Assembly: GCA_964631735.1 (NCBI GenBank)
Contig: CAZVZV010000042.1
Location: 20,321 to 84,320, forward strand
Direction of reading: 5' to 3'
DNA from: an uncultured Enterobacteriaceae bacterium
Lineage (GTDB): Bacteria > Pseudomonadota > Gammaproteobacteria > Burkholderiales > SG8-39
Length of the DNA stretch: 64,000 nucleotides
This document shows, piece by piece, positions 2,981-59,445 of this stretch; within the stretch, counting starts at the first letter, position 1, and each line of letters begins with the position of its first letter. Under the pieces are notes generated by a model. The model worked only from the letters and a program-made list of their open reading frames with translations, was not told where the DNA came from and did no database searches. Position numbers and translations under genes: made by a program.

Positions 2981-4341
2981 TACTTGACCTTCTGCTTGCT
3001 CTCCTGCGCCAGCTTCTGCTCGAGGTAATGGATCGAGGTGCCGCCGCGCAGGAAGCGGCTGTCGTGCAGCAGCTCGCGGTGCAGCGGGATGTTGTTGGCA
3101 ATGCCCTCGAGCACCATTTCCGAGAGTGCGATGCGCATGCGCCGGATCGCCTGGTCGCGCGTCGCACCGTAGGCGATCAGCTTGCCGACCATCGAGTCGT
3201 AATTGGGCGGCACCGTGTAGCCGGCGTAGATGTGCGTGTCGACGCGGATGCCGGGTCCGCCCGGCGGGTGATACGAGGTGATGCGGCCCGGTGAGGGCGT
3301 GAACCGGTACGGGTCCTCCGCGTTGATGCGGCACTCGATGGCGTGGCCGCGCACCACGATGTCTTTCTGCCGGAAGCGCAGCTTTTCTCCCGCCGCGATG
3401 CGGATCTGCTCCTGCACCAGGTCCACCCCGGTGACCATCTCGGTCACCGGGTGCTCGACCTGGATACGCGTGTTCATCTCGATGAAGTAGAACTCGCCCT
3501 CCTCGTACAGGAATTCGAAGGTGCCGGCGCCGCGGTAGCCGATCTTGCGGCAGGCGTCGGCGCAGCGCTCGCCGATCTTCTCGCGCTGCTTCTCGGTCAG
3601 CTCCGTGGCCGGCGCCTCTTCGATAATCTTCTGGTGGCGCCGCTGCATCGAGCAGTCGCGCTCGCCCAGGTAGATGGCGTTCTTGTGGCTGTCGGCAAGC
3701 ACCTGGATCTCGATGTGGCGCGGGTTCTCCAGAAATTTTTCCATGTATACCGTGGCGTTGCCGAAGGCTGCGTGCGCCTCGCCGCGGGTCATGTTGACGG
3801 CATTGAGCAGCGCCGCCTCGGTATGCACCACCCGCATGCCGCGCCCGCCGCCGCCGCCGGCGGCCTTGATGATCACCGGGTAGGAGACCTTGCGCGCGAT
3901 GCGCACGATCTCCTTGGCATCCTCGGGCAGCGCTCCCTCCGAGCCGGGTACGCAGGGCACCCCGGCCTTGAGCATGGCCTGCTTGGCGCTCACCTTGTCG
4001 CCCATCATGCGGATGTTCTCGGGGCGCGGGCCGATGAACACGAAACCCGAGCGCTCGACGCGTTCGGCGAAATCGGCGTTCTCTGACAGGAAGCCGTAGC
4101 CGGGGTGGATCGCCTCGGCGTCGGTGACTTCCGCGGCGCTGATGATGGCTGCCATGTTCAGGTAGCTGTCGCGCGCCGGCGCCGGGCCGATGCAAACCGA
4201 TTCGTCGGCCAGCTTCACGTACTTGGCCTCGGCGTCGACCGTCGAGTGCACGACCACGGTGCGGATGCCCATCTCGCGGCAGGCGCGCTGGATGCGCAGC
4301 GCGATCTCTCCGCGGTTGGCAATGAGGATCTTCTCGAACAC
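2980..4341 (-). CDS. accC: Acetyl-CoA carboxylase biotin carboxylase subunit
   Basis: 453 aa. [18 protein letters not shown]-terminus and the ATP-grasp motifs [10 protein letters not shown] and [14 protein letters not shown]. Confidence 0.97.
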
Positions 4342-4350
4342 CGGCGGGTG

Positions 4351-4803
4351 CTACTCGATGATGAACAGCGGCTGGCCGTACTCCACCGGCTGGCCGCTCT
4401 CCACCAGGATCGCCTTGATCATGCCGGTGGCGTCGGCTTCGATCTCGTTCATCAGCTTCATCGCTTCGATGATGCACACTGTCTCGCCGGCCTTGACGTT
4501 CTGGCCGACCTCGACGAAGGGCTTGGCTTCCGGCGAAGCCGAGCGGTAAAACGTGCCGACCATCGGCGCCTTGAGCGCGTGGCCGGGCTGGGCTGGTTCC
4601 TCGGCCGCTGCGGCCAGCGCCACTGGCGCCGGGGCAGTGGCCGTCGCGGCGGAGCTTGGCGCCGGGGCGGGGGCGGGGGTGACCGGCGTCACCGTCGCCT
4701 CCCCGCCTTTCACGATCTTCACCTTCTCCTCGCCCTCGGTGATCTCGAGTTCAGCGATGCCGGACACCTGCACGAGGTCGATCAGCTTCTTCAGCTTGCG
4801 CAA
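4351..4803 (-). CDS. accB: Acetyl-CoA carboxylase biotin carboxyl carrier protein (full length, TTG start)
   Basis: 150 aa. Ala/Pro linker and the biotinyl domain MVGTFYRS...[14 protein letters not shown]. The only in-frame start is TTG at 4803, because the expected ATG is AGG here. Confidence 0.92.
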
Positions 4804-4829
4804 ATCCCTGGTTTTCCTCTCCCGGCGGG
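4721..4829. repeat. Direct repeat copy A (accB 5' end plus RBS region)
   Basis: 109 bp. Identical at 104 of 109 positions to 4927-5035 by hand alignment. Period 206 bp. Confidence 0.9.
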
Positions 4830-5015
4830 TAGGGGGGAGGGGGCAGCAGGCCCCACCGCCGGCGGGGCAAAGACTTGCGTCACCGCCGCCGCCTGCGCCC
4901 CGGCGGTCACGCCGCGGCTGATGCGCACCTTTTCTTCGCCCTCGGTGATCTCGAGTTCAGCGATGCCGGACACCTGCACGAGGTCGATCAACTTCTTCAG
5001 CTTGCGCAGATCCAT
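4791..5015 (-). pseudogene. Truncated accB paralogue/remnant (BCCP N-terminal region only)
   Basis: 74-aa ORF: [36 protein letters not shown] plus an Ala/Pro linker. It then runs out of frame into repeat copy A and stops, so it has no biotinyl domain. Confidence 0.6.
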
Positions 5016-5035
5016 GGTTTTCCTCTCCCGGCGGG
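4927..5035. repeat. Direct repeat copy B (accB 5' end plus RBS region)
   Basis: 109 bp, 5 mismatches to copy A. Retains the ATG (plus-strand cat at 5013-5015) preceded by GGAGAGG. Confidence 0.9.
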
Positions 5036-5064
5036 CAAGGCTGCCCGCCACGCGGCGGTCGGCG

Positions 5065-5547
5065 CTAGGCCCCGCCGCTCCCCTTGGCCTTGAGGCGCCC
5101 CAGCGCATAGTCGAGCGCGAGGTCATAGCCCCGGCTGCCCAGCCCGAGGATCGAGCCGACCGCCACGGCGGTGAAATGCGAATGCGCGCGCCACGGCTCG
5201 CGCGCATGGATATTCGACAGGTGCACCTCGACGAAGGGGATCTGCACCGCCGTCAGCGCGTCGCGCAGCGCAATGCTCGAATAGGTGAAGGCGGCTGGGT
5301 TGAGGATGATGAATCCGACGCCGTCGCGCTTGGCCTGTTGTACCCGGTCAACCGCCACTCCTTCATGATTGGTCTGCAGGCAATCGAGCCGGGCACCGGC
5401 GGCCTTGGCCTTGGCGGCGAGCCGCCGCTCGATCATCGGCAGCGTGTCGCGGCCATACAGGTGCGGTTCCCGGGTACCGAGCAGGTTCAGGTTCGGCCCA
5501 TTCAGCAGCAGGATCCACGGAGTTGCTGACTTTTTGGATTTAGCCAT
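5065..5547 (-). CDS. aroQ: Type II 3-dehydroquinate dehydratase
   Basis: 160 aa. ILLLNGPNLNLLGTREPHLYG and HLSNIHAREPWR motifs. Confidence 0.95.
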   Translation of the reverse strand: MAKSKKSATPWILLLNGPNLNLLGTREPHLYGRDTLPMIERRLAAKAKAAGARLDCLQTNHEGVAVDRVQQAKRDGVGFIILNPAAFTYSSIALRDALTAVQIPFVEVHLSNIHAREPWRAHSHFTAVAVGSILGLGSRGYDLALDYALGRLKAKGSGGA

Positions 5548-5707
5548 TTTTCACCGAAGAAGGCTGCAATATAGCCGAAATTGCCCGACGATGACCCGTC
5601 ACACCCTTGGCTTCGGGCAACCCTGATCCAATTGTCCGATCCAGTCCCTGGACTGGCGAAGAACTGAATCCTTCCATCCTGCGAATTTTAAGAGAACTTA
5701 GCGACAT

Positions 5708-6340
5708 TTAACCACTCTTTCCCAGCATTTGACCGACTTCAACGATGCCCGCTCGGTCCATGACCCGCCCCGCAAGGGAGGTTTTCAGCGCCACGCGCTC
5801 GTCGCGAGGGTCGAACACAGAAAGGCGCAAGGGGGTATCGAGCCACTCGAGCTTGTACACGCTCACGGCGCGGGCCCGGTCGCCCGAGTAGCGTCGCCCC
5901 TCGGCTGTATCGAAGGCGATGTTGCGCTCCAGCAGGAACAGCTCGACGTCCTTGGGACTGTCCGGATAGAGCTGCAGGTCGACCTCCGCGTAGGGTCCGG
6001 CGATCCCTTTCAGCACCGGCCCGGTGAGGTAAGGGCTGAATCGCTCGAGCGCCCGCATGGCGTCGAGCGCCACCCGGCGCAGTTCGGCGATGCGTTCGGG
6101 ATGCTCGTCGGCCTGGTACAAAGCGCGATAGGCGCGCAGTTCGGCTTCGATTTCGTCGTTGGTGGGGAGCGACTCGGTATCGGCAGCGCCCAGCTGGCGC
6201 GCCGCCTTGCGTTTGGCAAGGGCGAAGTTGTCGATGCCATCCTCGGCCATCAGGCGCGCCGCCGCCGCGGCGATCCGCGAGCGCATGCCGTCATGCCGCG
6301 AAGAAGCCCGGCGGCTCATAGCGGGCGCATGATAGCGCAC
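5708..6340 (-). CDS. Conserved hypothetical protein
   Basis: 210-aa ORF divergent from mpl. The codon pattern looks coding. Start is ambiguous (GTG 6340 or ATG 6319). I recognise no family. Confidence 0.55.
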   Translation of the reverse strand: MRYHAPAMSRRASSRHDGMRSRIAAAAARLMAEDGIDNFALAKRKAARQLGAADTESLPTNDEIEAELRAYRALYQADEHPERIAELRRVALDAMRALERFSPYLTGPVLKGIAGPYAEVDLQLYPDSPKDVELFLLERNIAFDTAEGRRYSGDRARAVSVYKLEWLDTPLRLSVFDPRDERVALKTSLAGRVMDRAGIVEVGQMLGKSG

Positions 6341-6381
6341 CAGGCCGCGGGGCCATCGCGTAGAATCGCCGCCCTTTCGAC

Positions 6382-7728
6382 ATGGCCGCCCACCTGCATG
6401 TCCTTGGAATCTGCGGCACCTTCATGGGTGGCCTTGCGGCGATCGCACGCCAGGCGGGCTTCCGTGTGACCGGCTGTGACGCCAGCGCCTATCCACCGAT
6501 GAGCGATCAACTGGAGGCGCTCGGCATCGATTTGGTCGAAGGCTACGGCGCGGAACAGCTCTCCCTGCGGCCGGATGTGTGGGTGGTCGGCAACGTGGTA
6601 GCGCGCGGCAATCCGCTGATGGAGGCGATTCTGGACGCCGGCGACCGGTACATCTCGGGGCCGCAATGGCTCGCCGAGCATGTGCTCCATGGCCGACACG
6701 TACTTGCGGTGGCGGGGACCCACGGCAAGACCAGCACTGCCGCAATGCTCGCCTGGATCCTGGATCACGCCGGCCGCAAACCCGGGTTCCTGATCGGCGG
6801 GCTGCCTGGCAACTTTGGCATCTCTGCGCGCTTGGGGGATGGGTCCTTGTTCGTAATCGAGGCGGACGAGTACGACACCGCCTTCTTCGATAAGCGCTCC
6901 AAGTTTGTGCATTACCCCGCCAAGACCGCGATTTTGAATAATCTGGAGTTCGATCATGCTGACATCTTCTGCGATCTTGCAGACATTGAGCGGCAATTTC
7001 ATCATTTTGTCAGGGTCATACCTAGCAATGGGTGCCTTGTGGTCAATGGAAGAGATGAAGCCCTGAAGCGAGTGCTTACAAAGGGTTGCTGGACTTCGGT
7101 TGAGCACTTTGGTGTGGAGATGGGTTGGCAGGCTGACTCGGCCGATGGCGGATTCGAAGTACTACTGGAAGGTCGGGCGCTCGGCCGGGTGCGCTGGACT
7201 CTCACGGGGGAATACAACCAGCTGAATGCGCTGGCTGCGATCGCGGCTGCGCGTCATGCCGGGGTAGAGCCGGCGGCAGCGATTGCGGCACTTGCGCAGT
7301 TCAAGGGGGTACGCCGCCGCATGGAGCAAAGTGGGGAGGCCGCTGGCGTCACGGTGTTCGACGATTTCGCCCACCACCCCACTGCCATCCGCGTCACGCT
7401 CGAGGGGCTGCGGGCGCAGGCTGGAACCGCGCGCATCCTTGTGGTCCTCGAGCCGCGCTCCAATACGATGAAGCAGGGTGTGATGAAGGACCGGTTGCCT
7501 GCGAGTCTGGCCGCCGCTGACCGGGTGTTTGTCTACAGCGCCGGGTTGGCCTGGGACGCGGCCGCGGTGTTGCGGCCGCTGGGGGAGCGGGCGATTTGCT
7601 TCGAGCAGTTCGATCCGATGGTGGCGGCGATCGCCGCTGAAGCACGCCCGGGTGACCAGATTCTGGTGATGTCCAACGGGGGCTTCGGCGGCATCCACGC
7701 CAAATTACTTCGGGCGCTCGGCCGATGA
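6382..7728 (+). CDS. mpl: UDP-N-acetylmuramate:L-alanyl-gamma-D-glutamyl-meso-diaminopimelate ligase
   Basis: 448 aa. HLHVLGICGTFMGGLA N-terminus, the Mur ligase P-loop GTHGKTST, and NNLEFDHADIF. Confidence 0.93.
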   Translation: MAAHLHVLGICGTFMGGLAAIARQAGFRVTGCDASAYPPMSDQLEALGIDLVEGYGAEQLSLRPDVWVVGNVVARGNPLMEAILDAGDRYISGPQWLAEHVLHGRHVLAVAGTHGKTSTAAMLAWILDHAGRKPGFLIGGLPGNFGISARLGDGSLFVIEADEYDTAFFDKRSKFVHYPAKTAILNNLEFDHADIFCDLADIERQFHHFVRVIPSNGCLVVNGRDEALKRVLTKGCWTSVEHFGVEMGWQADSADGGFEVLLEGRALGRVRWTLTGEYNQLNALAAIAAARHAGVEPAAAIAALAQFKGVRRRMEQSGEAAGVTVFDDFAHHPTAIRVTLEGLRAQAGTARILVVLEPRSNTMKQGVMKDRLPASLAAADRVFVYSAGLAWDAAAVLRPLGERAICFEQFDPMVAAIAAEARPGDQILVMSNGGFGGIHAKLLRALGR

Positions 7729-8288
7729 TCGCCTACCTGCACGGTTTCAACTCCTCGCCGGCGTCCCACAAGGCGCAGCTGCTTGGCCGGTACATGCAGG
7801 AGCAGGGACTTGGCGTGCACTACGCCTGCCCGGTGCTTCCGCCGCTGCCGGGCGACGCGATCGCGGCGGTCGAAGCGCTGATGGCGCGCCTCCCGGGCAC
7901 GCCGTTTTGCTTCGTCGGTTCCTCGCTCGGCGGCTTTTACGCCACGCACCTTGCGGAAAAGCACGGCAGCAAGGCCGTGCTGATCAACCCGGCCATCGAC
8001 CCGCATGTCGGCCTGCGCACCTACCTCGGCGAGCAGAAAAATCTGCACACCGGCGAGCCCTACCATCTGACCGAGGCCCATCTGCGCGAGTGGCAAGACC
8101 TCTGGACCTCGCGCGTTACTCCGTCCCGCTATCTGCTGATCGTCGAGACTGGCGACGAAGTGCTGGACTACCGCAGGGCGGTCGAACGCTATGCCGGTGC
8201 GGCCAAGCTGGTGATCGAGGGCGGCGACCACTCGCTGCAGTCCTTCCCGCAGCACCTGGCGCGCATCCTCGAGTTCGCGGTGGCCTGA
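7725..8288 (+). CDS. YqiA/YcfP-family esterase (UPF0227)
   Basis: 187 aa. MIAYLHGFNSSP and the GSSLGG nucleophile elbow. Confidence 0.8.
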   Translation: MIAYLHGFNSSPASHKAQLLGRYMQEQGLGVHYACPVLPPLPGDAIAAVEALMARLPGTPFCFVGSSLGGFYATHLAEKHGSKAVLINPAIDPHVGLRTYLGEQKNLHTGEPYHLTEAHLREWQDLWTSRVTPSRYLLIVETGDEVLDYRRAVERYAGAAKLVIEGGDHSLQSFPQHLARILEFAVA

Positions 8289-8289
8289 G

Positions 8290-10158
8290 ATGCACCTGCT
8301 GTTCGAGGAGGACGGCGAGTTCAAGGTCGGGACGGTGCTTGCACAAGCGCCGGCCTCGTTCCAGGTGGAGGCGCCGCACGGCCGGCGATCGAAGATCAAG
8401 GCGGGCAACGTGCTGTTGAGCTTCGAGCGGCCCGCTGCGGCGCAGCTGCTCGCTGCCGCCCAGGCCTACGCCGCCGGGCTCGACACCGATTTCCTGTGGC
8501 AGTGCTGTCCGGCGGGCGAGTTCGGCTTCCAGGAGCTGGCGCGGGAATATGTCGGCCGCGAGGCGGGACCGGCCGAAGCCGCCGGCGTGCTGCTCAAACT
8601 GCAGTCGGCGCCGATGTACTTCCATCGCCGCGGCCGCGGCCGCTACCAGGCGGCTCCCGCGGAAACGCTCAAGCTTGCGCTCGCTTCCGCCGAGAAGAAG
8701 CAGCGCGTGCTCGCGCAGATCGCCGAGTGGGCCGCGCAGCTCGTGCGCTTCGAGTGTCCACCCGAAATCGAGCGGCTGAAGGACGAGCTGCTGTATGCGC
8801 CTGATCGCAACAAGCCGGAAACCAAAGCCTTCGAGCAGGCCTGCGCGAAGGCGGGGCTGTCGGGCGCGCGCCTCCTCGAGCGTTGCGGCAAGCTCACCGA
8901 CTCCCACGCCTACCACCTTAACCGCTTCCTGTTCGAATTCTTCCCGGGCGGCACTGCCTTCCCGCCGCATGAAGTGGCGTCGCCTCCCGGCGAATTGCCG
9001 CTGGCCGCCGCAGAGGCCTTCAGCCTGGACGACGCCGACACCACCGAGATCGATGACGCGTTTTCTCTGCAGCGCCTGTCCGACGATGAGTGGCGCGTGG
9101 GGATCCATATTGCCGCCCCCGCGCTCGCCTTTGCGCCTGGCTCGGCACTCGACGCCATCGCACGCGAGCGGCTTTCCACCGCCTACATGCCGGGGCAGAA
9201 ATTCACCATGCTGCCCGACGACGCGATCGCCGCCTGCTCGCTCGACGCGGGCACGGAGCGGGCGGTGGTGTCGTTGTATGTGAACGTGTCGGCCGGGGAT
9301 TTCACGCTGCGTGGGCGCCACTCGCGGCTGGAGCGCGTGCGCATCGCGGCCAACCTGCGCCATGGCGAGGTCGAGCCGTTGAACGCGGCCTTCGAGGAAG
9401 GCAGGAACACCGGGCTGCCCCGCGAGGATCAACTGCGCACGCTGTGGCGCCTGGCCGAGGCGCTCGAGGCGCGCCGCGGCAAGCCGAGCGTCAATCAGGC
9501 CGCCGTGGACTATGTTTTCCGCGTGCAGCAGGGCAGGGTGCGCATCGAGCCGCGCCGGCGCGGAGCGCCGCTCGACAAGCTGGTCGCCGAGCTGATGATC
9601 CTCGCCAATACCACCTGGGGCGAACAACTCGCCGAGCGTGACGTCGCAGCGCTGTACCGCGTGCAGTCCGCCGGCAAGGTGAGGATGAGCGTGCACCCGG
9701 AAGCGCACGATGGGCTCGGCGTCGCCTGCTACGCCTGGAGCAGTTCGCCGCTGCGCCGCTACGTCGACCTGGTCAACCAGTGGCAGCTCGCTGCGGCGCT
9801 CGGCGGCCGCAAGCCGCCGTTCACGCGCACCTCCGAGTCCCTGCTCACCGCCTTGCGCGCCTTCGAGGTCACTTACGCGCGCTACGACGAGCACCAGCGC
9901 GCGATGGAGAATTACTGGTGCCTGCGCTGGCTCCTGCAGGAGGGCATCACCGAAGTCGAAGCGGTGGTGCTGCGCGAGAACCTGGTGCGCTTCGAAGGGT
10001 TGCCGCTTGCCGCCCGCGTGCCCTCACTGCCCGCGCTCGACGCGGGTACGCGCGTGCGCCTGGCGGTGGGCGAGGTGGATCTGATCGAGCGCAGCGTGGT
10101 CTGCACCTACCGCGAGACGCTGGCTGCGGCCCCCGCGGCTGCCGACGAGCAGGGGTAA
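8290..10158 (+). CDS. RNB-domain exoribonuclease (RNase II family)
   Basis: 622 aa. DDADTTEIDDAFS (RNB motif I-like), an N-terminal OB-like region, and a C-terminal S1-like region. Confidence 0.85.
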   Translation: MHLLFEEDGEFKVGTVLAQAPASFQVEAPHGRRSKIKAGNVLLSFERPAAAQLLAAAQAYAAGLDTDFLWQCCPAGEFGFQELAREYVGREAGPAEAAGVLLKLQSAPMYFHRRGRGRYQAAPAETLKLALASAEKKQRVLAQIAEWAAQLVRFECPPEIERLKDELLYAPDRNKPETKAFEQACAKAGLSGARLLERCGKLTDSHAYHLNRFLFEFFPGGTAFPPHEVASPPGELPLAAAEAFSLDDADTTEIDDAFSLQRLSDDEWRVGIHIAAPALAFAPGSALDAIARERLSTAYMPGQKFTMLPDDAIAACSLDAGTERAVVSLYVNVSAGDFTLRGRHSRLERVRIAANLRHGEVEPLNAAFEEGRNTGLPREDQLRTLWRLAEALEARRGKPSVNQAAVDYVFRVQQGRVRIEPRRRGAPLDKLVAELMILANTTWGEQLAERDVAALYRVQSAGKVRMSVHPEAHDGLGVACYAWSSSPLRRYVDLVNQWQLAAALGGRKPPFTRTSESLLTALRAFEVTYARYDEHQRAMENYWCLRWLLQEGITEVEAVVLRENLVRFEGLPLAARVPSLPALDAGTRVRLAVGEVDLIERSVVCTYRETLAAAPAAADEQG

Positions 10159-53599: not shown

Positions 53600-54734
53600 G
53601 GCCTTCTTCGCCCCGTGCCCGCGGGGGCTGGAAGCGCTGCTCGCCGAAGAGCTGAAGTCCTTCGGCGTGGCGGTGCCGGAACCCACGCAGGGCGGCGTGG
53701 GCTTCGCCGGCAGCTGGGAGACCTGCTACCGCACCAATCTCTGGTCGAGGATCGCCTCGCGCGTGCTGTGGCGGGTAGGGGAGTTCGAGTACCAATCCGA
53801 AGAGGACATCTACGCGGCGGCGCGCGCGGTGGACTGGTTCTCGCTGTTCGACGTGAACCGCACGCTGCGCGTCTACGTCACGGCGCAAAAGAGCCCCGTG
53901 AAGAGCCTCGAGTTCGTCACGCTGCGCGTGAAGGACGCGGTCTGCGACCGCTTTCGCGACGACGTGGGACGCCGGCCGAACGTGGAGCGCGCCGATCCGG
54001 ACGTGCGCGTGCACGTGTTCCTGCAGGAAAAGCGCGGCGCGCTGTACCTCGATACCTCGGGCGAGGCGCTGTTCAAGCGCGGCTGGCGCATGGAGACGGT
54101 GGAAGCGCCCTTGCGCGAGAACCTGGCGGCGGGCCTCGTGATGCTCTCGGGGTGGAAGTTCGACCAGCCCTTGCTGGATCCCATGTGCGGCGGGGCGACG
54201 ATCCTGGTGGAGGCGGCGGCGATGGCGCGCGGGCGGGCGCCCGGAATGAAGCGCTCGTTCGGGTTCGAGAAGCTGGATTCCTTCAACGCGACTTTGTGGA
54301 AGCGGCTGCGCGAGGAGGCGTCAAGCCCGGTGCAGAAGGCGCCGAAGCTGCGGCTGTTCGGCAGCGATTCCGATGCGACGGCGCTTACCGCGGCGCGGAG
54401 GAATCTAGGCGCGGCTGGGGTAGAGCGCTGGGTGACGCTGGAGGCGAGCGACGTTTTCAAGCGCAAGGCGCCGGCGGAGTCGGGGGTGATGATCGCCAAT
54501 CCGCCTTACGGCGAGAGGATTGGCGAGAGCGAGGAGTTGGCGCGGTTTTATCCGAAGCTGGGAGATGCGCTGAAGAGGAACTTCGCGGGGTGGAACTGCT
54601 ACTTCTTCACTGCCGATCGCAGGATGGAGAAGATGATCCGGCTTTCGACTACTCGGCGCACGCCGCTGTTCAACGGGCCGATCGAGTGCCGGCTGTATGA
54701 GTTCAAGGTGGTGGCGGGGAGCAACCGGCCTTAG
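53577..54734 (+). CDS. THUMP-domain class I SAM-dependent RNA methyltransferase
   Basis: 385 aa. LLDPMCGGATILVEAA and ANPPYGERIG motifs. The TTG start is uncertain and overlaps the hemJ end. Confidence 0.85.
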   Translation: MSSSSRPEAFFAPCPRGLEALLAEELKSFGVAVPEPTQGGVGFAGSWETCYRTNLWSRIASRVLWRVGEFEYQSEEDIYAAARAVDWFSLFDVNRTLRVYVTAQKSPVKSLEFVTLRVKDAVCDRFRDDVGRRPNVERADPDVRVHVFLQEKRGALYLDTSGEALFKRGWRMETVEAPLRENLAAGLVMLSGWKFDQPLLDPMCGGATILVEAAAMARGRAPGMKRSFGFEKLDSFNATLWKRLREEASSPVQKAPKLRLFGSDSDATALTAARRNLGAAGVERWVTLEASDVFKRKAPAESGVMIANPPYGERIGESEELARFYPKLGDALKRNFAGWNCYFFTADRRMEKMIRLSTTRRTPLFNGPIECRLYEFKVVAGSNRP

Positions 54735-54768
54735 CGAGCCGCCCGCTTCGGCAGTTAGTTGACATCGA

Positions 54769-55569
54769 TCAGATCGCCAAAGCCTGCACGATGACGGCTT
54801 GCGCGTGGCCCTCGTACGGATCGCCGCCCGTCCTCGTCAGAGCGTCGGTGACCTCGTCGATGACCAGATCGAGCGAGACGCCTCGCTTTTCAATGAGCGC
54901 CGCCCTCGGCGTGCCGCGGATCTGACCGGTAGCGATGCTGCGCGGATCCGCCCCCGTGATTGGGATGCGCTTGGTTTCGATGCTTGTCTCACGGAAGCGC
55001 GCGCCTGCGAGAAGCCGGCGTAAAAGGCCTGCATCATGCATGTCATACGGCAGCCTGAACTTCATCTCGGGGTCGCCCAGAAACATGGCTTCGACGACCC
55101 CGGCGTTGGCCGACGCGTGTGGATTCTCCTCGATACTGTCCCAGACATTGAACAGGAGAATGCCGCCTTCGGTGAGCACGCGCCGCGCCTCCTTGAGCAT
55201 GGCCTGTCGGTCCGGCACAAACATGATTCCAAATCCGCAGACCACCGCGCCGAACGTGCGGTCTTCAAACGGCAGCTTGAGAGCATCGGCTTCCCGCCAT
55301 TCGATGCCTTTGCATTCCCCAAGCTTTCCGCGCGCGTAGTCGAGCATCGCGTTACTCAGGTCGGTGGCCACGAGTCGGAGCGAGGGGTCGATGCGGTCAC
55401 GTAGCCTCTTGGTCACGAGGCCGGTACCACAGGCGACCTCTAAGATGTCGCCCGGCGGGCGTTCCGGGAGGCGCTGTACAAGGTCGGCCGCGAAGCGATC
55501 GAACCAGATGGGTCCGAGGCAGTTGTCGTAATACTCCGGACCCGTAAAGCTTGCCGACGCACTGACCAT
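54769..55569 (-). CDS. Class I SAM-dependent methyltransferase
   Basis: 266 aa. ILEVACGTGLVT motif I and Methyltransf_11-like spacing. Confidence 0.85.
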   Translation of the reverse strand: MVSASASFTGPEYYDNCLGPIWFDRFAADLVQRLPERPPGDILEVACGTGLVTKRLRDRIDPSLRLVATDLSNAMLDYARGKLGECKGIEWREADALKLPFEDRTFGAVVCGFGIMFVPDRQAMLKEARRVLTEGGILLFNVWDSIEENPHASANAGVVEAMFLGDPEMKFRLPYDMHDAGLLRRLLAGARFRETSIETKRIPITGADPRSIATGQIRGTPRAALIEKRGVSLDLVIDEVTDALTRTGGDPYEGHAQAVIVQALAI

Positions 55570-55588
55570 GTGACGCTGCCGGGCGTAA

Positions 55589-56395
55589 TTACTTGGCCGC
55601 CGCCAGGCGGGCGAGATCGAGGGCCTTCATTCCGATTTCGCCGCCGAGCAACTCGGCTTCGCGGTTGAGCGCCGAGATGACGCCGTCCAACAGGGTCGAG
55701 CGGCCGTCGCCGATCCTTGCCGTCATGGACGAGACTGCGGCTGCGGCGATGCCCGCCCGACCCAGAATCGGGAGCGAGGCGACGCCGGCATTCTCGATGC
55801 CCATGGAGGCATCGTTGCAGAGACTCAATATCGGCTTGATCCGGGCGACATAGTCTGCCGAAGGCAAGGCGGCGTGCGAGCCGGCGGCCAGCACCTGGCC
55901 CTTGTCCTGCGCCGTCGCCAGAGAGACGGAATCGACGCAGACAATGCCGCGGCGCTCGCCGTCGGCCTCTTGATAAACGAAGCGCGTCTCTTCGCGCGGC
56001 TCGGGCGGCGTATGGGGCAGCGGGGCGTTCCGCAGCAGCTCGGCGGCGTCGCGGCAGGTCATGCCGACCGTCACACCGCAGGCCGCCGCAATCTTGTTGA
56101 CCCGGCTCAGGATGCCGCGGCGCATCATGTCGTCTCCGTCGCCGCTGCGGGCTGAATTCACCGCCACCGCCGCGACCGCCATGCCGAGCTTCTCCGCCCA
56201 GCCGAGGCCCGAGACGCCGGCTTGGTCGAGGCCGATGCCTGCGTCGTGCTGAATGGCGGCACGAGCGCCGGCGCGTGCGGAAAGATAGACGGTGAAGATC
56301 GCGGCATGGCTGCCGCCGACCACCACCGAGCCCGGCGTCTCGGGCGGCAGGCGGGTGACGGAGGGCGTCACGATGATCCGAACGGTCGATTCCAT
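55589..56395 (-). CDS. Hypothetical protein built from two homologous ~110-aa halves
   Basis: 268 aa. Residues 22-101 and 166-245 align ungapped with 29 of 80 identities (GSHAA...DAxxGI..AGV..L....G.A.AAV....AR.GDG). I recognise no family. Confidence 0.65.
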   Translation of the reverse strand: MESTVRIIVTPSVTRLPPETPGSVVVGGSHAAIFTVYLSARAGARAAIQHDAGIGLDQAGVSGLGWAEKLGMAVAAVAVNSARSGDGDDMMRRGILSRVNKIAAACGVTVGMTCRDAAELLRNAPLPHTPPEPREETRFVYQEADGERRGIVCVDSVSLATAQDKGQVLAAGSHAALPSADYVARIKPILSLCNDASMGIENAGVASLPILGRAGIAAAAVSSMTARIGDGRSTLLDGVISALNREAELLGGEIGMKALDLARLAAAK

Positions 56396-56424
56396 TTTCA
56401 GTCCTTTCGGTGATCTCGCGTTGA

Positions 56425-57429
56425 CTACGTGAATCGAGACAAGACAAAAGCCACCGCCGCGACGACCGCGCTCGCGACGACCACAACCATGTAATACGGC
56501 TCGATGATGTGATGCAGGGCATGCGTCGCCGCACGGAAGCCGCGTGCGTGGCGCCTGAGCCCCGAGGTGGTCACCAGCCTTGGCTTATCGGCGAGAAAGC
56601 GCGGCACCTCTTCAAAGAAGATATTGCGTGCGGGCTCATGCTCGAGAAACAGGTGACTGTCCCCTTCCATCGGAACGAACTTCGCTCCGGCAATCCTCGC
56701 CGCCAGTTCCTGGCCGAGTCCGTAGGGAACCGCCCGGTCTCCCCGGCAGTGCAGCACGATCGTCGGCACCCTGACTTGCGGAAGCAACGCGCTCACGTCG
56801 ACGTCTGCGATGGCGCGCCAGTATATCGCCGCCATCTCGGGCGTGGCGCTCACCTTTTCGAGTTCGTTGATAAATTGAATGTTCTCCCGGTTGCCGCTCG
56901 GCACGTACATCGAGGAAAAGAGCTCGCGATACGATTCGTTCCTGCCACCCCATCCGTCGAGTATCAGCGTGCACATCGCGGCGAGCGATTCAGGGCGGGA
57001 GCTACCTTCCGCGCCGCCGCGATGCAGGCGCCCGCGGGCGTAGCTGCCGTAGAGGATCAAGTGGCTGACGCGCTCGGGGTGGGCGACGGTGTACTGGATT
57101 GCCGTCGCGCCGCCCTGGGATATGCCCAGAAGCGCAAACCGCTCCAGTTGCAGACTTTCCACAACGGCCTCGAGGTCCTTCAGCCATTGTTCGGGACCGA
57201 CTTCCTCGACCATGCGCTCGGACAACCCGGTGCCACGAGGGTCATAGCGAACGAACTGGTGCTGCTCCGACAGGCCCTGGATCAAATGGCCCCAGACAGG
57301 GCTATTCAGGTCGTACTCGAGATGGGTTAGCCAGTGACCAGGCCGCACGATCGGCGTACCCACTCCCGAGGTCGCGTACGCGATGCGCACCCCGTCGGCG
57401 GTGGTGCAAAATCGTATTTCTTGTTTCAC
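56425..57429 (-). CDS. Alpha/beta hydrolase with C-terminal TM anchor
   Basis: 334 aa. GTG start preceded by GGAGG. GISQGG nucleophile elbow. C-terminal YYMVVVVASAVVAAVAFVL helix. Confidence 0.8.
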   Translation of the reverse strand: MKQEIRFCTTADGVRIAYATSGVGTPIVRPGHWLTHLEYDLNSPVWGHLIQGLSEQHQFVRYDPRGTGLSERMVEEVGPEQWLKDLEAVVESLQLERFALLGISQGGATAIQYTVAHPERVSHLILYGSYARGRLHRGGAEGSSRPESLAAMCTLILDGWGGRNESYRELFSSMYVPSGNRENIQFINELEKVSATPEMAAIYWRAIADVDVSALLPQVRVPTIVLHCRGDRAVPYGLGQELAARIAGAKFVPMEGDSHLFLEHEPARNIFFEEVPRFLADKPRLVTTSGLRRHARGFRAATHALHHIIEPYYMVVVVASAVVAAVAFVLSRFT

Positions 57430-57489
57430 CCCTTACCTCCAAAAGCGCAGTGACGGCCGGTAGGCGACACCCAACGTGTATTGGTTGAC

Positions 57490-57517
57490 AAATTAGTTGA
57501 CACACAGCGGTTTGCAA
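57490..57517 (-). promoter_or_regulatory. Putative sigma70-type promoter (TTGCAA-N16-TAATTT), with the -35 inside a 16-bp perfect palindrome
   Basis: On the minus strand, TTGCAA sits at 57512-57517 and TAATTT at 57490-57495. The palindrome GCGGTTTGCAAACCGC spans 57507-57522. This is 60-90 bp upstream of the hydrolase GTG. Confidence 0.3.
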
Positions 57518-57599
57518 ACCGCCGACATGTAACAGCGCTCGAAGTGTCTCTGACGCATCAACAAGCTACGCCGCGTCAGGCCATGAATCTACGCTGACA

Positions 57600-57743
57600 C
57601 TAGCTCTTCGGTTTCTCCGTCTGCTGCTGGCCCTTGGTTTCCTCAGGCTCCTTGTAGTCGCCGATCACGCCTTTCAGCGGGCAAACAGAGAAAGCCGGGC
57701 ACTTCTTGCAGCCGACAGCCAGGGCGATGGGGCAAAGGGTCAT
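57600..57743 (-). CDS. Small Cys-rich protein (47 aa), absent from the ORF track
   Basis: Hand translation: MTLCPIALAVGCKKCPAFSVCPLKGVIGDYKEPEETKGQQQTEKPKS. The ATG is preceded by AAGGAGGAATCAC. Four Cys residues, three of them in CP dipeptides. Confidence 0.6.
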   Translation of the reverse strand: MTLCPIALAVGCKKCPAFSVCPLKGVIGDYKEPEETKGQQQTEKPKS

Positions 57744-57769
57744 GTGATTCCTCCTTCAGGGGATTTCGA

Positions 57770-58036
57770 TTATCGGCTTCTGGGACCGCGCACGGCAGGA
57801 TTGAGGCGCTCGATGTCCGCCTTCACCTGCGCCTGGCTGCGCTCATAGACGATTTCCCGCCCCATCGCGCTGCCGGCGTAGGCGAACCCATTGCGCGTAG
57901 GGGTCAGCGAGCAGCGGATGTTGTTCACGCCCTCGCCGAGGACGACCGTGACCACCTCTGCGCGCTTGCTGTACACCACCACTTCCAGCGTCTGGCCGGT
58001 GGAGGTGACGCGGACCTTGATTCTCTCGTCCTGCAT
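57770..58036 (-). CDS. Hypothetical protein (88 aa)
   Basis: ORF starting 12 bp downstream of the hydrolase stop, in the same orientation. I recognise no family. Confidence 0.5.
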   Translation of the reverse strand: MQDERIKVRVTSTGQTLEVVVYSKRAEVVTVVLGEGVNNIRCSLTPTRNGFAYAGSAMGREIVYERSQAQVKADIERLNPAVRGPRSR

Positions 58037-58048
58037 GCCACCGCCACT

Positions 58049-58993
58049 CTACAGCCTTGCGCGGAACCGCAGGTAGTCCAGGGAGCTCTTCTCGGGCTGC
58101 TCCAGCATCGGAAGATGCCCGACGCCTTGCATCAGGACGACCTCCGAGTGCGTCAGCAGCATCTGCAGGATGCCCGCGCCGGCGGGATGCAGGACGCGAT
58201 CCTGCGCGCCCCAGACGATCAGCGCCGGGGTCGCGAGGCCGCGCACGCGCTGCTCGACGGAATCTCCCGCGAGCTGCTTGGAGATGCGCTGTTCCAGTGC
58301 ATGGTTGCGGATGCGCTCCTGCGCCAGCACGTCGAGAAAGCGGCGAGGGATCGGCATCGGCACCGCCGTGACGACCGCGACGAGCCGCGCGAACTCCTCC
58401 TCATTTCTCACGATCATCGGGTTCTCCCCGCCCTGATCGATGCGCTTGCGCATCTCGCTCGGCGGGGCGCTCCACACGCCTGCCGGGGCAAGCAGCCACA
58501 GGCTCGCGACTTCCTTCGGGTAGAGCGCGGCATAGGCGAGGGCGATGTGTCCGCCCATCGAATTGCCGCCGAGATGCAGCCTGGAGATGCCGAGTTCGCG
58601 TGCCAGCGTGCGCAGCCGCTCGGCCTGCGCGCGCGGCGTGTAGTCGGCATTCGCCGGCCTGGCGGACTCGCCAAAGCCAATGTGGTCCGGGATCACCACG
58701 CGGTAGTGCGGCGTGAGGTACTTGGCCGCGCGTACGAAGTTGTCCTTGTTGGCGCCAAAGCCGTGCAGCAGCATCAGCGGCTCGCCGCGCCCGCCCTCCA
58801 GGTAGACGTAGCGCAGCCCGCCGGGGAGCTCGGTGTCCTTGCGCGCGAGGCCGGCCAGCCCGCGCTCGTAGTCGAGCGCGCGGCGCACCAGCTGCTCCGG
58901 GGAGAAGTAGAAGTAAAGCGCGACGCCGATTGCGAGGAGCGCCAGCATGCCCAGCGCGGCGAGCGCGACGAGCCAGAGCCTGAAGGACCGCAT
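58049..58993 (-). CDS. Alpha/beta hydrolase with N-terminal TM anchor
   Basis: 314 aa from ATG 58993 (TGATG overlap with the upstream gene). LLHGFGANKD and GNSMGG motifs. Confidence 0.8.
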   Translation of the reverse strand: MRSFRLWLVALAALGMLALLAIGVALYFYFSPEQLVRRALDYERGLAGLARKDTELPGGLRYVYLEGGRGEPLMLLHGFGANKDNFVRAAKYLTPHYRVVIPDHIGFGESARPANADYTPRAQAERLRTLARELGISRLHLGGNSMGGHIALAYAALYPKEVASLWLLAPAGVWSAPPSEMRKRIDQGGENPMIVRNEEEFARLVAVVTAVPMPIPRRFLDVLAQERIRNHALEQRISKQLAGDSVEQRVRGLATPALIVWGAQDRVLHPAGAGILQMLLTHSEVVLMQGVGHLPMLEQPEKSSLDYLRFRARL

Positions 58994-59445
58994 CAGCCGA
59001 AGGTGCCGACTCCTCGCGCCGCCAGGGCGGCGCACAGGAGGATGAGCACGATGCCCACCAGTTCCAGGTGCATCACGGCGCGCAGCTTGCGCAGTTTGCC
59101 GGCGTCGAGGTTCGGCGCCTGCCCCTGCTGCAGGGACTTGCGCCAGGACAGGAACTCCATGGTGGGAACGATGGAGAGCAGCCCGACGGCGAGGAACAGC
59201 ACCAGCTTGGCGATGAAGGGCGCACTGTGCAAATAGTAGTCTGCGCCTTTCTCGAAATAGAACACGCGCAGCAGGCCGACGACCAGCACCACGCCCGACG
59301 ACAGGCCGAATACCATGTCGGTGAGCTGGAGCCGGCGCGCCGTGCGCGCGTCGATTTCGCCCTTGATGAGGACGAATTCCAACGCCAGGGCGGCGACGAG
59401 CGCAAAGGCCGCCAGATGGTGCAGGAAGGCGAAGAGGGCGGACAA
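58993..59445 (-). CDS. DUF2214-like membrane protein
   Basis: 150 aa with four predicted TM helices. Starts 4 bp after the pilU stop. Confidence 0.65.
   Translation of the reverse strand: MSALFAFLHHLAAFALVAALALEFVLIKGEIDARTARRLQLTDMVFGLSSGVVLVVGLLRVFYFEKGADYYLHSAPFIAKLVLFLAVGLLSIVPTMEFLSWRKSLQQGQAPNLDAGKLRKLRAVMHLELVGIVLILLCAALAARGVGTFG

Follow-up and report, generated by a model that had tools for sequence, protein, structure and literature searches.

The stretch of DNA analysed here (the window) comprises 64,000 nucleotides of contig CAZVZV010000042.1 (assembly GCA_964631735.1), from an uncultured bacterium whose GTDB lineage lies within the Burkholderiales. Three adjacent genes on its minus strand encode an alpha/beta-hydrolase, an internally duplicated protein (hereafter the middle protein) and a class I S-adenosylmethionine (SAM)-dependent methyltransferase. 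Comparison with other contigs identifies the three genes, with high confidence, as one integron gene cassette of ~2.7 kb. The best explanation overall is that this is a three-gene cassette whose products would act on one small carboxylic molecule, a reading that we consider fairly probable. An earlier note on the window had reported three co-oriented open reading frames (ORFs) separated by 19–29 bp; these coordinates were reproduced, with spacers of 29 nt between the hydrolase and the middle protein and 19 nt between the middle protein and the methyltransferase. The genes and the unit that they form are as follows.

57429..56425, minus strand: alpha/beta-hydrolase, 334 aa, GTG start, GGAGG ribosome-binding site, assigned by Pfam
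56395..55589, minus strand: middle protein, 268 aa, internally duplicated alpha/beta protein of an uncharacterised two-repeat family
55569..54769, minus strand: class I SAM-dependent methyltransferase, 266 aa, assigned by Pfam, motif I EVACGTG
54763..57477, minus strand: homology unit common to L004, L005, L087 and L088, very probably a three-gene integron gene cassette

The evidence for a cassette comes from four metagenome or metagenome-assembled genome (MAG) contigs, L004, L005, L087 and L088. In blastn comparisons all four share with the window the same 2,715-bp span (57477-54763) at 93–94% identity, and the flanks are unrelated. All five copies begin (A/C)G↓TTGGG(C/T)GTCGCC, which is the integron core site G↓TTRRRY (the arrow marks the crossover), with unrelated sequence upstream of it. 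At the other end, the trio has its own attC site in L004, L005 and L087. This site is 63 nt long, has the form GCCCAAC...AAACG↓TT(A/G) with a bulged GC-rich hairpin, and the three sequences part company directly after its G↓TT. In full it runs GCCCAAC...AAACG↓TTAGGC, and its bottom strand folds with -42.8 kcal/mol. Every attC site in the integron contigs is recovered (40–69 bits) by a covariance model that was constructed from seven such sites, with 57–69 bits for those of the trio.

The L087 contig also carries the machinery. A 329-aa recombinase, divergent from the array, reaches 477 bits with the ‘integron integrase’ model TIGR02249, whose cut-off is 265, and five consecutive RYYYAAC...GTTRRRY sites lie between same-strand ORFs. 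The trio is the fifth cassette of this array, and each of the four ORFs between it and the integrase gene ends in such a site. In L088 (3419-3530) the trio attC breaks off directly behind the R'' box, where it is joined to a cupin gene. That cupin cassette is found upstream of the trio in L004 (552-1046) and downstream of it in L088. This arrangement directly shows cassette reshuffling as well as fusion through loss of attC. The three genes, which the earlier note had taken as a unit, are thus found together across five contexts, packaged in all likelihood in one mobile integron cassette. The GC content of the cassette is 0.644, compared with 0.67 for the window. According to a 2024 preprint, 85,204 RefSeq cassettes hold 121,711 genes (~1.4 per cassette) and cassette size is constrained, which places a three-gene cassette of 2.7 kb at the large end.

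Some features of the comparison contigs are recorded here in passing. The cassette just before the trio in L087 (3463-3851, plus strand) encodes a cysteine-rich protein of ~129 aa with a signal-like N-terminal segment, and another cassette of that array weakly matches the N-terminal domain of the VPA1262 family. Contig L005, which bears the proteobacterial-type cassette at 96% identity, is labelled as an ‘uncultured Streptomycetaceae’ MAG, probably through a binning error.

The chromosomal site of the window copy

In the window, the cassette is bounded on its upstream side by a conserved block and several backbone genes, and on its downstream side by a short spacer that leads to a convergent RlmL-like gene.

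57475..57536, minus strand: conserved att-type site, 62 nt, ending at the G↓TT crossover (57475/57474), common to L103, L125 and L126
57507-57522: palindrome GCGGTTTGCAAACCGC inside the 62-nt att-type site
57493-57502 and 57481-57490: direct repeats TGTCAAC(T/C)AA inside the att-type site
54735..54768, minus strand: 34-nt spacer from the methyltransferase stop to the convergent RlmL-like stop, a possible attC remnant with an R''-like CAACTAAC box and part of a stem
57770-58036, minus strand: 88-aa backbone protein (s88) without a family match
58049-59035, minus strand: second alpha/beta-hydrolase (hyd2) with an N-terminal transmembrane helix
58993-59445, minus strand: 150-aa membrane protein, overlapping hyd2

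The 62-nt block is common to the window, L103, L125 and L126, and in these four loci four different cassettes follow right after ACACG↓TT. Since the block is shared by genomes with different cassettes, the palindrome within it is best regarded as part of an att-type recombination site that lies outside the cassette. The earlier note had pointed to a possible promoter or palindrome upstream of the genes. The palindrome does exist, but a consensus scan of 54400-58200 found no sigma-70-like promoter, and an operator or terminator role for the palindrome was dropped in favour of the att-type site. The cassette leader before the hydrolase gene is 48 nt long.

On the other side, homology between the window and the integron copies stops 6 nt past the methyltransferase stop codon, and the 34-nt spacer beyond it is weakly similar to the 5' half of the trio attC. 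The motif TGTCAACYAA occurs on both flanks (three copies against 0.02 expected). A target-site duplication was considered as its origin and rejected, because the right-hand copy is not conserved in L099 and L100, the nearest relatives (TGGCAACTAT); a better match for this copy is the R'' box of an attC that has been truncated. With most of its attC lost, the window copy amounts to an orphan cassette that has become fixed in what is left of a chromosomal integron. Integrase-less arrays and IntI-catalysed insertion outside att sites have both been documented (attG preprint; PMC4889954).

The surroundings of the locus were surveyed in 80 metagenomic relatives of the RlmL-like gene. The interval between this gene and the backbone made up of c47 (a 47-aa ORF described below), s88, hyd2 and pilU is a variable hotspot, with the 62-nt att-type site at its head; s88, hyd2 and the 150-aa gene are the conserved genes between the hotspot and pilU. 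The site is empty in L130 and L149 and holds unrelated inserts in other relatives. Further, arrays of attC sites in cassette orientation occupy the interval in L156 (nine sites) and L132 (seven), and also in L126, L103, L165 and L170. In L134 (70% RlmL identity), a C-terminal fragment of an integron integrase (3504-3848, plus strand; aa 207-321, 69% identity) without an intact ORF is placed between the cassette array and pilU. The fragment is probably an intI pseudogene, a trace of the ancestral integron platform of the locus.

The closest relative, L100 (96% RlmL identity), is continuous with the window through the methyltransferase gene and then jumps to c47; the part missing from it comprises the att block and the genes of the hydrolase and the middle protein, and no more. 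A junction of 37 nt (2031-2067) stands in place of the window content at 55569-57599, and the methyltransferase there starts with GTG. The solo methyltransferase of L100 could reflect either a precise deletion or an independent acquisition.

The c47 gene itself (57600-57743, minus strand) is a cysteine-rich ORF of 47 aa just upstream of the att-type site. It has a strong ribosome-binding site, reads MTLCPIALAVGCKKCPAFSVCPLKG..., contains four Cys and has no match in Pfam, NCBIfam or PADLOC. It is variably present, at 70–87% identity in many relatives. In L169 and L170 it abuts rlmL and attC sites lie further upstream, an arrangement on account of which the ORF may itself be a cassette gene. 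The segment 57478-58040 has the lowest GC content of the neighbourhood (0.60).

The duplicated protein and its family

The middle protein is a true tandem duplication. The earlier note had described two homologous halves sharing 29 of 80 identities; the count is exact (residues 22-101 against 166-245), and the duplication is far beyond chance, as a Smith–Waterman alignment of the N-half with the C-half scores 162 against 34 ± 6 in 1,000 shuffles (z = 20). The repeat was also upheld by a statistical comparison of profiles, in which hhalign aligned nine N-halves with nine C-halves at a probability of 99.6% (E 5.7e-24) over 117 columns without gaps. Within these 117 positions the window protein has 39 identities. 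Because the alignment spans 117 columns, the repeat unit can be set at ~120 residues (aa 4-120 and 148-264), exceeding the 80 first noted. The two repeats, with ranges taken from hhalign, are located as follows.

56036..56386, minus strand: repeat 1 of the middle protein, aa 4-120
55604..55954, minus strand: repeat 2 of the middle protein, aa 148-264

Conserved residues in repeat 1 are G28-S29-H30, D51, G55, A59-G60, A82-R83-x-G85-D86-G87, G94, S97 and N100, and those in repeat 2 are G172-S173-H174, N194-D195, G204, A226-R227-I228-G229-D230-G231, G238, S241 and N244. When the halves of nine homologues are stacked in an alignment of ~125 columns, there is no variation in either half at G-S-H, D, G, G, L, G, A, G-x-G (in ARIGDG), G, S, N and A, and the conservation of R83, I84 and D86 is at least 90%. 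Across the family, GSH, D, G, AG, ARIGDG and G..S..N vary little or not at all in the two halves. AlphaFold2 models the whole protein with a pLDDT of 95.4, and one repeat alone with 92.2. The order beta-alpha-beta-alpha-beta-alpha-beta-alpha is present twice in the model, in agreement with the pseudo-dimeric fold that had been proposed for the protein, and the invariant residues are predicted to lie on post-strand loops.

Database searches did not place the protein in a known family, as had already been suspected from its sequence. It has no NCBIfam match. Its sole profile match is DUF1805/YunC (PF08827), at 27.4 bits (E 4e-6), below the gathering threshold of 29.5, and this match aligns residues 67-120, half of one repeat, to positions 10-63 of the 64-position model. 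When isolated halves were compared with DUF1805, 10 of 18 matched weakly (E<1), the best single half reaching at most 21 bits. To our knowledge, DUF1805 is without a known function. The label ‘YunC (DUF1805 family)’ is attached to some homologues in some sources. No genuine solved relative was retrieved from the PDB by sequence, whether the query was the protein, the family profile or the single-repeat profile. Foldseek searches of the PDB gave no significant neighbour either, with best E values of 0.015 for the full model and 0.1 for a single repeat (TM <= 0.37).

Several candidate relationships were discarded. Matches to RecA in the PDB sequence searches are artefacts of repeated 6-bit matches summed over concatenated chains. 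Local matches to DNA polymerase eta (31 residues), together with a weak Pfam IMS match, reflect a single helix-strand motif and not homology. A relationship with Asp/Glu racemases was rejected on an hhalign probability of 0.3% between the family profile and a racemase-family protein encoded near the Natronosalvus member.

The family is a large one. A word-indexed search found more than 1,100 homologues, almost all unnamed, and when the single-repeat profile was run exhaustively with HMMER, 1,507 representatives (clustered at 50% identity) were recovered at E<=1e-3. Two repeats in ~245–310 aa were present in 150 of the 150 representatives listed (out of the 1,507). The family ranges over Proteobacteria, Actinobacteria and haloarchaea. 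In a tblastn search of plasmids, members with 32–51% identity were found in Rhizobium, Aminobacter, Methylovirgula, Ponticoccus, Rhodococcus and five haloarchaea, and all of these are annotated as ‘hypothetical protein’.

The genomic contexts of these distant members offer some guidance on function. On the five haloarchaeal plasmids (L091 and L095–L098; locus ~5400-9600) a VOC gene borders the row of middle protein, RuBisCO-like protein and four-carbon acid-sugar kinase (DUF1537) in five of five cases. All five also have genes for short-chain dehydrogenases/reductases (SDR), and most have those for an HpcH aldolase, a TRAP transporter and IclR. The best NCBIfam models for the RuBisCO-like protein and the kinase are OiaX and OiaK (3-oxo-isoapionate), at 512 and 448 bits against an equivalog cut-off of 700, and no ApnO-type oxidoisomerase was found among the haloarchaeal neighbours scanned. 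This operon looks like an uncharacterised archaeal acid-sugar pathway with the duplicated protein first. The Rhodococcus gene belongs to a DUF35/CoA-ligase/thiolase/hydratase operon, in which it overlaps the gene that comes after it and is translationally coupled to it. The clusters of Rhizobium, Methylovirgula and Aminobacter contain SDR, cupin, RidA and dienelactone hydrolase genes. Alpha/beta or dienelactone hydrolases lie near family members in Devosia, Aminobacter and Natronosalvus, LtnD/OtnI-like neighbours are found in L086, and a class II aldolase neighbour in L003.

A further context is that of 57–68 Reyranella-type loci (L010–L083), where the gene is followed by one for a 73-aa biotin carboxyl-carrier and then by YeiH. 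This carrier is free-standing, contains the motif SMKM and passes the NF004547 cut-off of 75 with 77.8 bits. In L084 (5001-7084) the gap to the carrier gene is 25 nt, the YeiH membrane-protein gene overlaps the carrier gene by 8 nt, and a DTW-domain gene is divergent upstream. Neither a biotin carboxylase nor a known carboxyltransferase was found in the 5-kb flanks of the Reyranella-type loci inspected.

Taken together, these contexts share oxo/hydroxy-carboxylic-acid or carboxyl chemistry, and the family has invariant Ser-His, Asp, Arg-x-Gly-Asp-Gly and Asn on strand-end loops. For these reasons an enzyme of organic-acid metabolism is favoured as the tentative identity of the family, a reading that is somewhat less than an even bet. 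More specifically, the duplicated protein might represent a new enzyme family with a fold that lacks a solved representative, pseudo-symmetric and probably cofactor-independent, which would carry out an unassigned step in the catabolism of oxo- or hydroxy-acids, for instance by isomerising or epimerising a beta-keto acid sugar or by handling its carboxyl group. Its partners would then be the OiaK-like kinase and OiaX-like decarboxylase in haloarchaea, and the biotin carrier and YeiH in Reyranellales. So specific a proposal is rather unlikely to hold in full. Isomerase or epimerase chemistry that uses the equivalent residues of both halves is more speculative still.

Alternatively, the duplicated protein may not be an enzyme at all. 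It could belong with YunC/DUF1805 as a binder of ligands, a carrier or a regulator found alongside various metabolic operons, which we regard as doubtful. Such a role would suit the weak DUF1805 similarity, the sole database link of the protein, and the diverse neighbourhoods would be natural for a generic accessory factor; moreover, a catalytic mechanism is not readable from the sequence. Against it count ~15 strictly invariant positions per repeat, among them Ser-His, Asp, Arg and Asn. In the predicted Rossmann-like alpha/beta fold these would sit on post-strand loops, as is typical of catalytic or phosphate/carboxylate-binding sites. The gene also takes enzyme-like positions in operons, including the translationally coupled one of Rhodococcus.

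A proposed shared role for the three products and its rivals

The enzyme classes of the two flanking genes, an alpha/beta-hydrolase and a class I SAM methyltransferase in the earlier note, are confirmed by Pfam matches above cut-off. For the hydrolase these are Abhydrolase_1/6 and Hydrolase_4 (Abhydrolase_1 58.5 bits, cut-off 25.8). GISQG at residues 102-106 is its nucleophile elbow (GxSxG), and the putative Asp and His of the catalytic triad can be placed by alignment. Its closest solved relatives are carboxylesterases, arylesterases and a 3-oxoadipate enol-lactonase (E 1e-13 to 1e-16). The C-terminal segment YMVVVVASAVVAAVAFVLS (residues 313-331) is strongly hydrophobic, with a mean Kyte–Doolittle hydropathy of 2.5 across 19 residues, which makes a C-terminal tail anchor plausible. 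The methyltransferase matches Methyltransf_11/25/12/31 and Ubie_methyltran over their cut-offs (Methyltransf_11 78.6 bits, cut-off 21.2), and its closest solved relatives are small-molecule O- and N-methyltransferases. Weak NCBIfam similarities to BioC (E 9e-17), trans-aconitate methyltransferase (1e-9) and BioH (9e-11) all fall far under the cut-offs. A role in the modification or detoxification of a small molecule, as had been suggested, would be a reasonable reading.

In the model that we favour, the cassette would have no promoter of its own and be transcribed by read-through from the upstream c47 and s88 genes. The membrane-tethered serine hydrolase would open an ester or lactone, the duplicated protein would convert the hydroxy- or oxo-acid that is released, and the methyltransferase would methylate the substrate or the product. 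For the duplicated protein, our guess would be an isomerase/epimerase-like or a carboxyl-handling reaction on oxo- or hydroxy-acids, to which both halves would contribute the same constellation of residues.

For three genes that would serve one pathway, the extent of their linkage is relevant. It was surveyed in 83 loci encoding members of the duplicated family, with neighbouring genes taken from precomputed or RefSeq annotations. Within this set, the three genes stand side by side only in the near-identical copies L004 and L005 (~96% identity), and more than 70 of the 83 have neither partner gene. The idea of the trio as a conserved pathway is therefore not borne out. What did emerge from the survey of neighbourhoods is a linked pair. 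In a clade with ~80% identity (L001/2 and L006–L009) the middle protein is followed by a 164-aa ORF and an orthologous methyltransferase (72–74% aa identity), and the covariance model found no attC around these loci. In L006, a 42%-identical hydrolase lies 2.4 kb upstream. A functional coupling of the three genes finds support in their co-packaging in one cassette and in this linkage of the middle protein and the methyltransferase outside integrons.

The L001 locus (4620-8695) is a six-gene same-strand operon with a divergent LysR gene. It encodes, in order, a 125-aa weak cupin, a 290-aa methyltransferase, the duplicated protein, a 164-aa unknown protein, a 268-aa methyltransferase, which is the orthologue of that in the window, and a 166-aa unknown protein; the three small proteins are without a family match.

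Several observations weigh against a shared role of the three genes in an integron cassette. The 64-kb window contains no intI (tblastn with the L087 IntI, best E 4.5) and no attC was detected in it, the best covariance-model score being 15 bits with nothing near the cassette, so that the integron status of the window copy rests on other contigs. The 62-nt site, which adjoins no integrase, could be an atypical attC of the c47 cassette and not an attI. Further, the closest relative, L100, keeps the methyltransferase without the hydrolase and the middle protein, and related methyltransferases (39–44% identity) are single in the arrays of L134, L136, L138, L139 and L156; the three genes may therefore not be obligately coupled. 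Members of the duplicated family have varied gene neighbourhoods, and the loci sampled belong mostly to a single order. Finally, both the hydrolase and the methyltransferase fall under every NCBIfam equivalog cut-off.

The main alternative, with which the solo methyltransferases agree, is that formerly separate cassettes were fused by accident after loss of attC, in which case co-packaging would say nothing of a shared pathway. Such a fusion has a direct precedent in the cupin junction of L088, where an attC was lost and the cassette joined to the next gene, and at the corresponding place in the chromosome L100 has nothing of the trio but the methyltransferase. Amino acid identity of the window proteins to those of L087 is 83% for the methyltransferase, compared with 96% for the hydrolase and 95% for the middle protein, and a three-gene cassette is well above the RefSeq mean of ~1.4 genes. 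On the other hand, the 29- and 19-nt gaps contain no attC remnant, and the middle protein and the orthologous methyltransferase are linked outside integrons (L001, L006–L009) with no attC nearby. The hydrolase upstream in L006, and the alpha/beta or dienelactone hydrolases that recur by family members in Devosia, Aminobacter and Natronosalvus, similarly count against an accidental association. On balance, we judge an accidental fusion to be unlikely.

A compact anti-phage defence system, with the methyltransferase as a modification or sensor component, has a good deal less to commend it. Streamlined defence systems are reported by the same 2024 preprint for many sedentary-integron cassettes, a two-gene cassette with a methyltransferase among them, and the window methyltransferase has a 65-bit match to ‘mad2’ of PADLOC. 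However, this match covers only the generic SAM-binding domain, and none of the three proteins matched a system-specific model of PADLOC-DB: the search with the middle protein gave no match at all, and the hydrolase reaches a weak 26 bits on a generic TAP-like alpha/beta-hydrolase model. Moreover, the methyltransferase resembles small-molecule enzymes and not DNA methyltransferases, and the duplicated family sits in catabolic operons with transporters and dehydrogenases in both bacteria and archaea. A defence function is accordingly very improbable.

Least probable of all, and largely refuted already by the junction comparisons, is an ordinary, vertically inherited chromosomal operon for small-molecule modification or detoxification with its own promoter and operator palindrome: the co-oriented, tightly spaced genes with plausible ribosome-binding sites and the enzyme classes suited to small-molecule chemistry would agree with it, but the unit has sharp borders at integron core sites in five unrelated contexts, in close relatives the corresponding position is vacant or taken by other cassettes, the palindrome falls beyond the borders of the unit and recurs in loci with different cassettes, no sigma-70-like promoter was found, and the trio is missing from more than 70 of the 83 family loci.

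Comparison with known systems

With known integron cassettes the trio shares the G↓TTRRRY border at its 5' end, the RYYYAAC/GTTRRRY attC and the occurrence of the same unit after different att sites; it differs in holding three genes in ~2.7 kb. Likeness to chromosomal integrons is seen in the L087 array with its TIGR02249 integrase and in the relatives of the window locus that carry attC arrays and an intI remnant, whereas the insertion site in the window, the conserved 62-nt block, adjoins no integrase. As a candidate attI-like site, this block has a G↓TT crossover, conserved direct repeats and four different cassettes that follow it, and no adjoining intI. A CALIN is defined by at least two attC sites without a nearby intI (PMC4889954). 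As no attC was detected in it, the window copy is not a CALIN, whereas its relatives L156, L132 and L126 would qualify. Loss of intI and insertion at secondary sites are documented routes to such integrase-less states (attG preprint; PMC4889954).

The analysis turns what had been an anonymous ‘operon’ into a defined mobile unit, and it provides a concrete case of integrons moving multi-enzyme modules and not single genes, with the 62-nt block as a candidate attachment site. It also flags a sizeable family without a function, of ~1,500 clusters at 50% identity, which has a confidently predicted duplicated fold and no significant solved structural neighbour. The context of this family points to the catabolism of organic acids and acid sugars, in which steps stay unassigned. 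If the duplicated protein does represent a new enzyme family, integrons would be distributing a preassembled set of three enzymes, in which it is joined by an esterase and a methyltransferase.

Of known families, DUF1805/YunC is the only one to show a profile match to the duplicated protein, and more than half of the isolated halves match it weakly. The score is nevertheless sub-threshold, and the repeat of ~120 aa is about twice the length of the Pfam model and is present in two copies in all 150 members listed. The Asp/Glu racemase superfamily offers an analogy, in that two alpha/beta halves supply the same residues and such a gene lies near the Natronosalvus member, but the duplicated family lacks conserved cysteines and the hhalign comparison gave no sign of kinship.

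Methyl esters serve to ‘protect and deprotect’ in the BioC/BioH pair, and Tam carries out carboxyl methylation. By analogy, the trio may be likened to BioC/BioH-type pairs because it combines a class I SAM methyltransferase with an esterase of the alpha/beta fold and has weak NCBIfam similarity to them. Unlike these pairs, it scores far under the cut-offs and has no acyl carrier protein (ACP) or fatty-acid context.

Acid-sugar catabolic clusters provide the last comparison. A bacterial cluster of this kind, ApnO-OiaK-OiaX, has been published (PMC12994016), and distant members of the duplicated family are found directly upstream of OiaX- and OiaK-like genes or beside LtnD/OtnI-like genes. OiaK is the 3-oxo-isoapionate kinase and OiaX a RuBisCO-like decarboxylase, and LtnD/OtnI/OtnC belong to the tetronate pathway. 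The duplicated protein is not described in the published versions of these pathways that were searched, a set that did not extend to the primary D-apiose pathway paper. The window cassette differs from such clusters in having none of those partners. The haloarchaeal operon, in which the duplicated protein stands with OiaX-like and OiaK-like proteins, nevertheless offers a tractable system in which a function could be assigned to the family.

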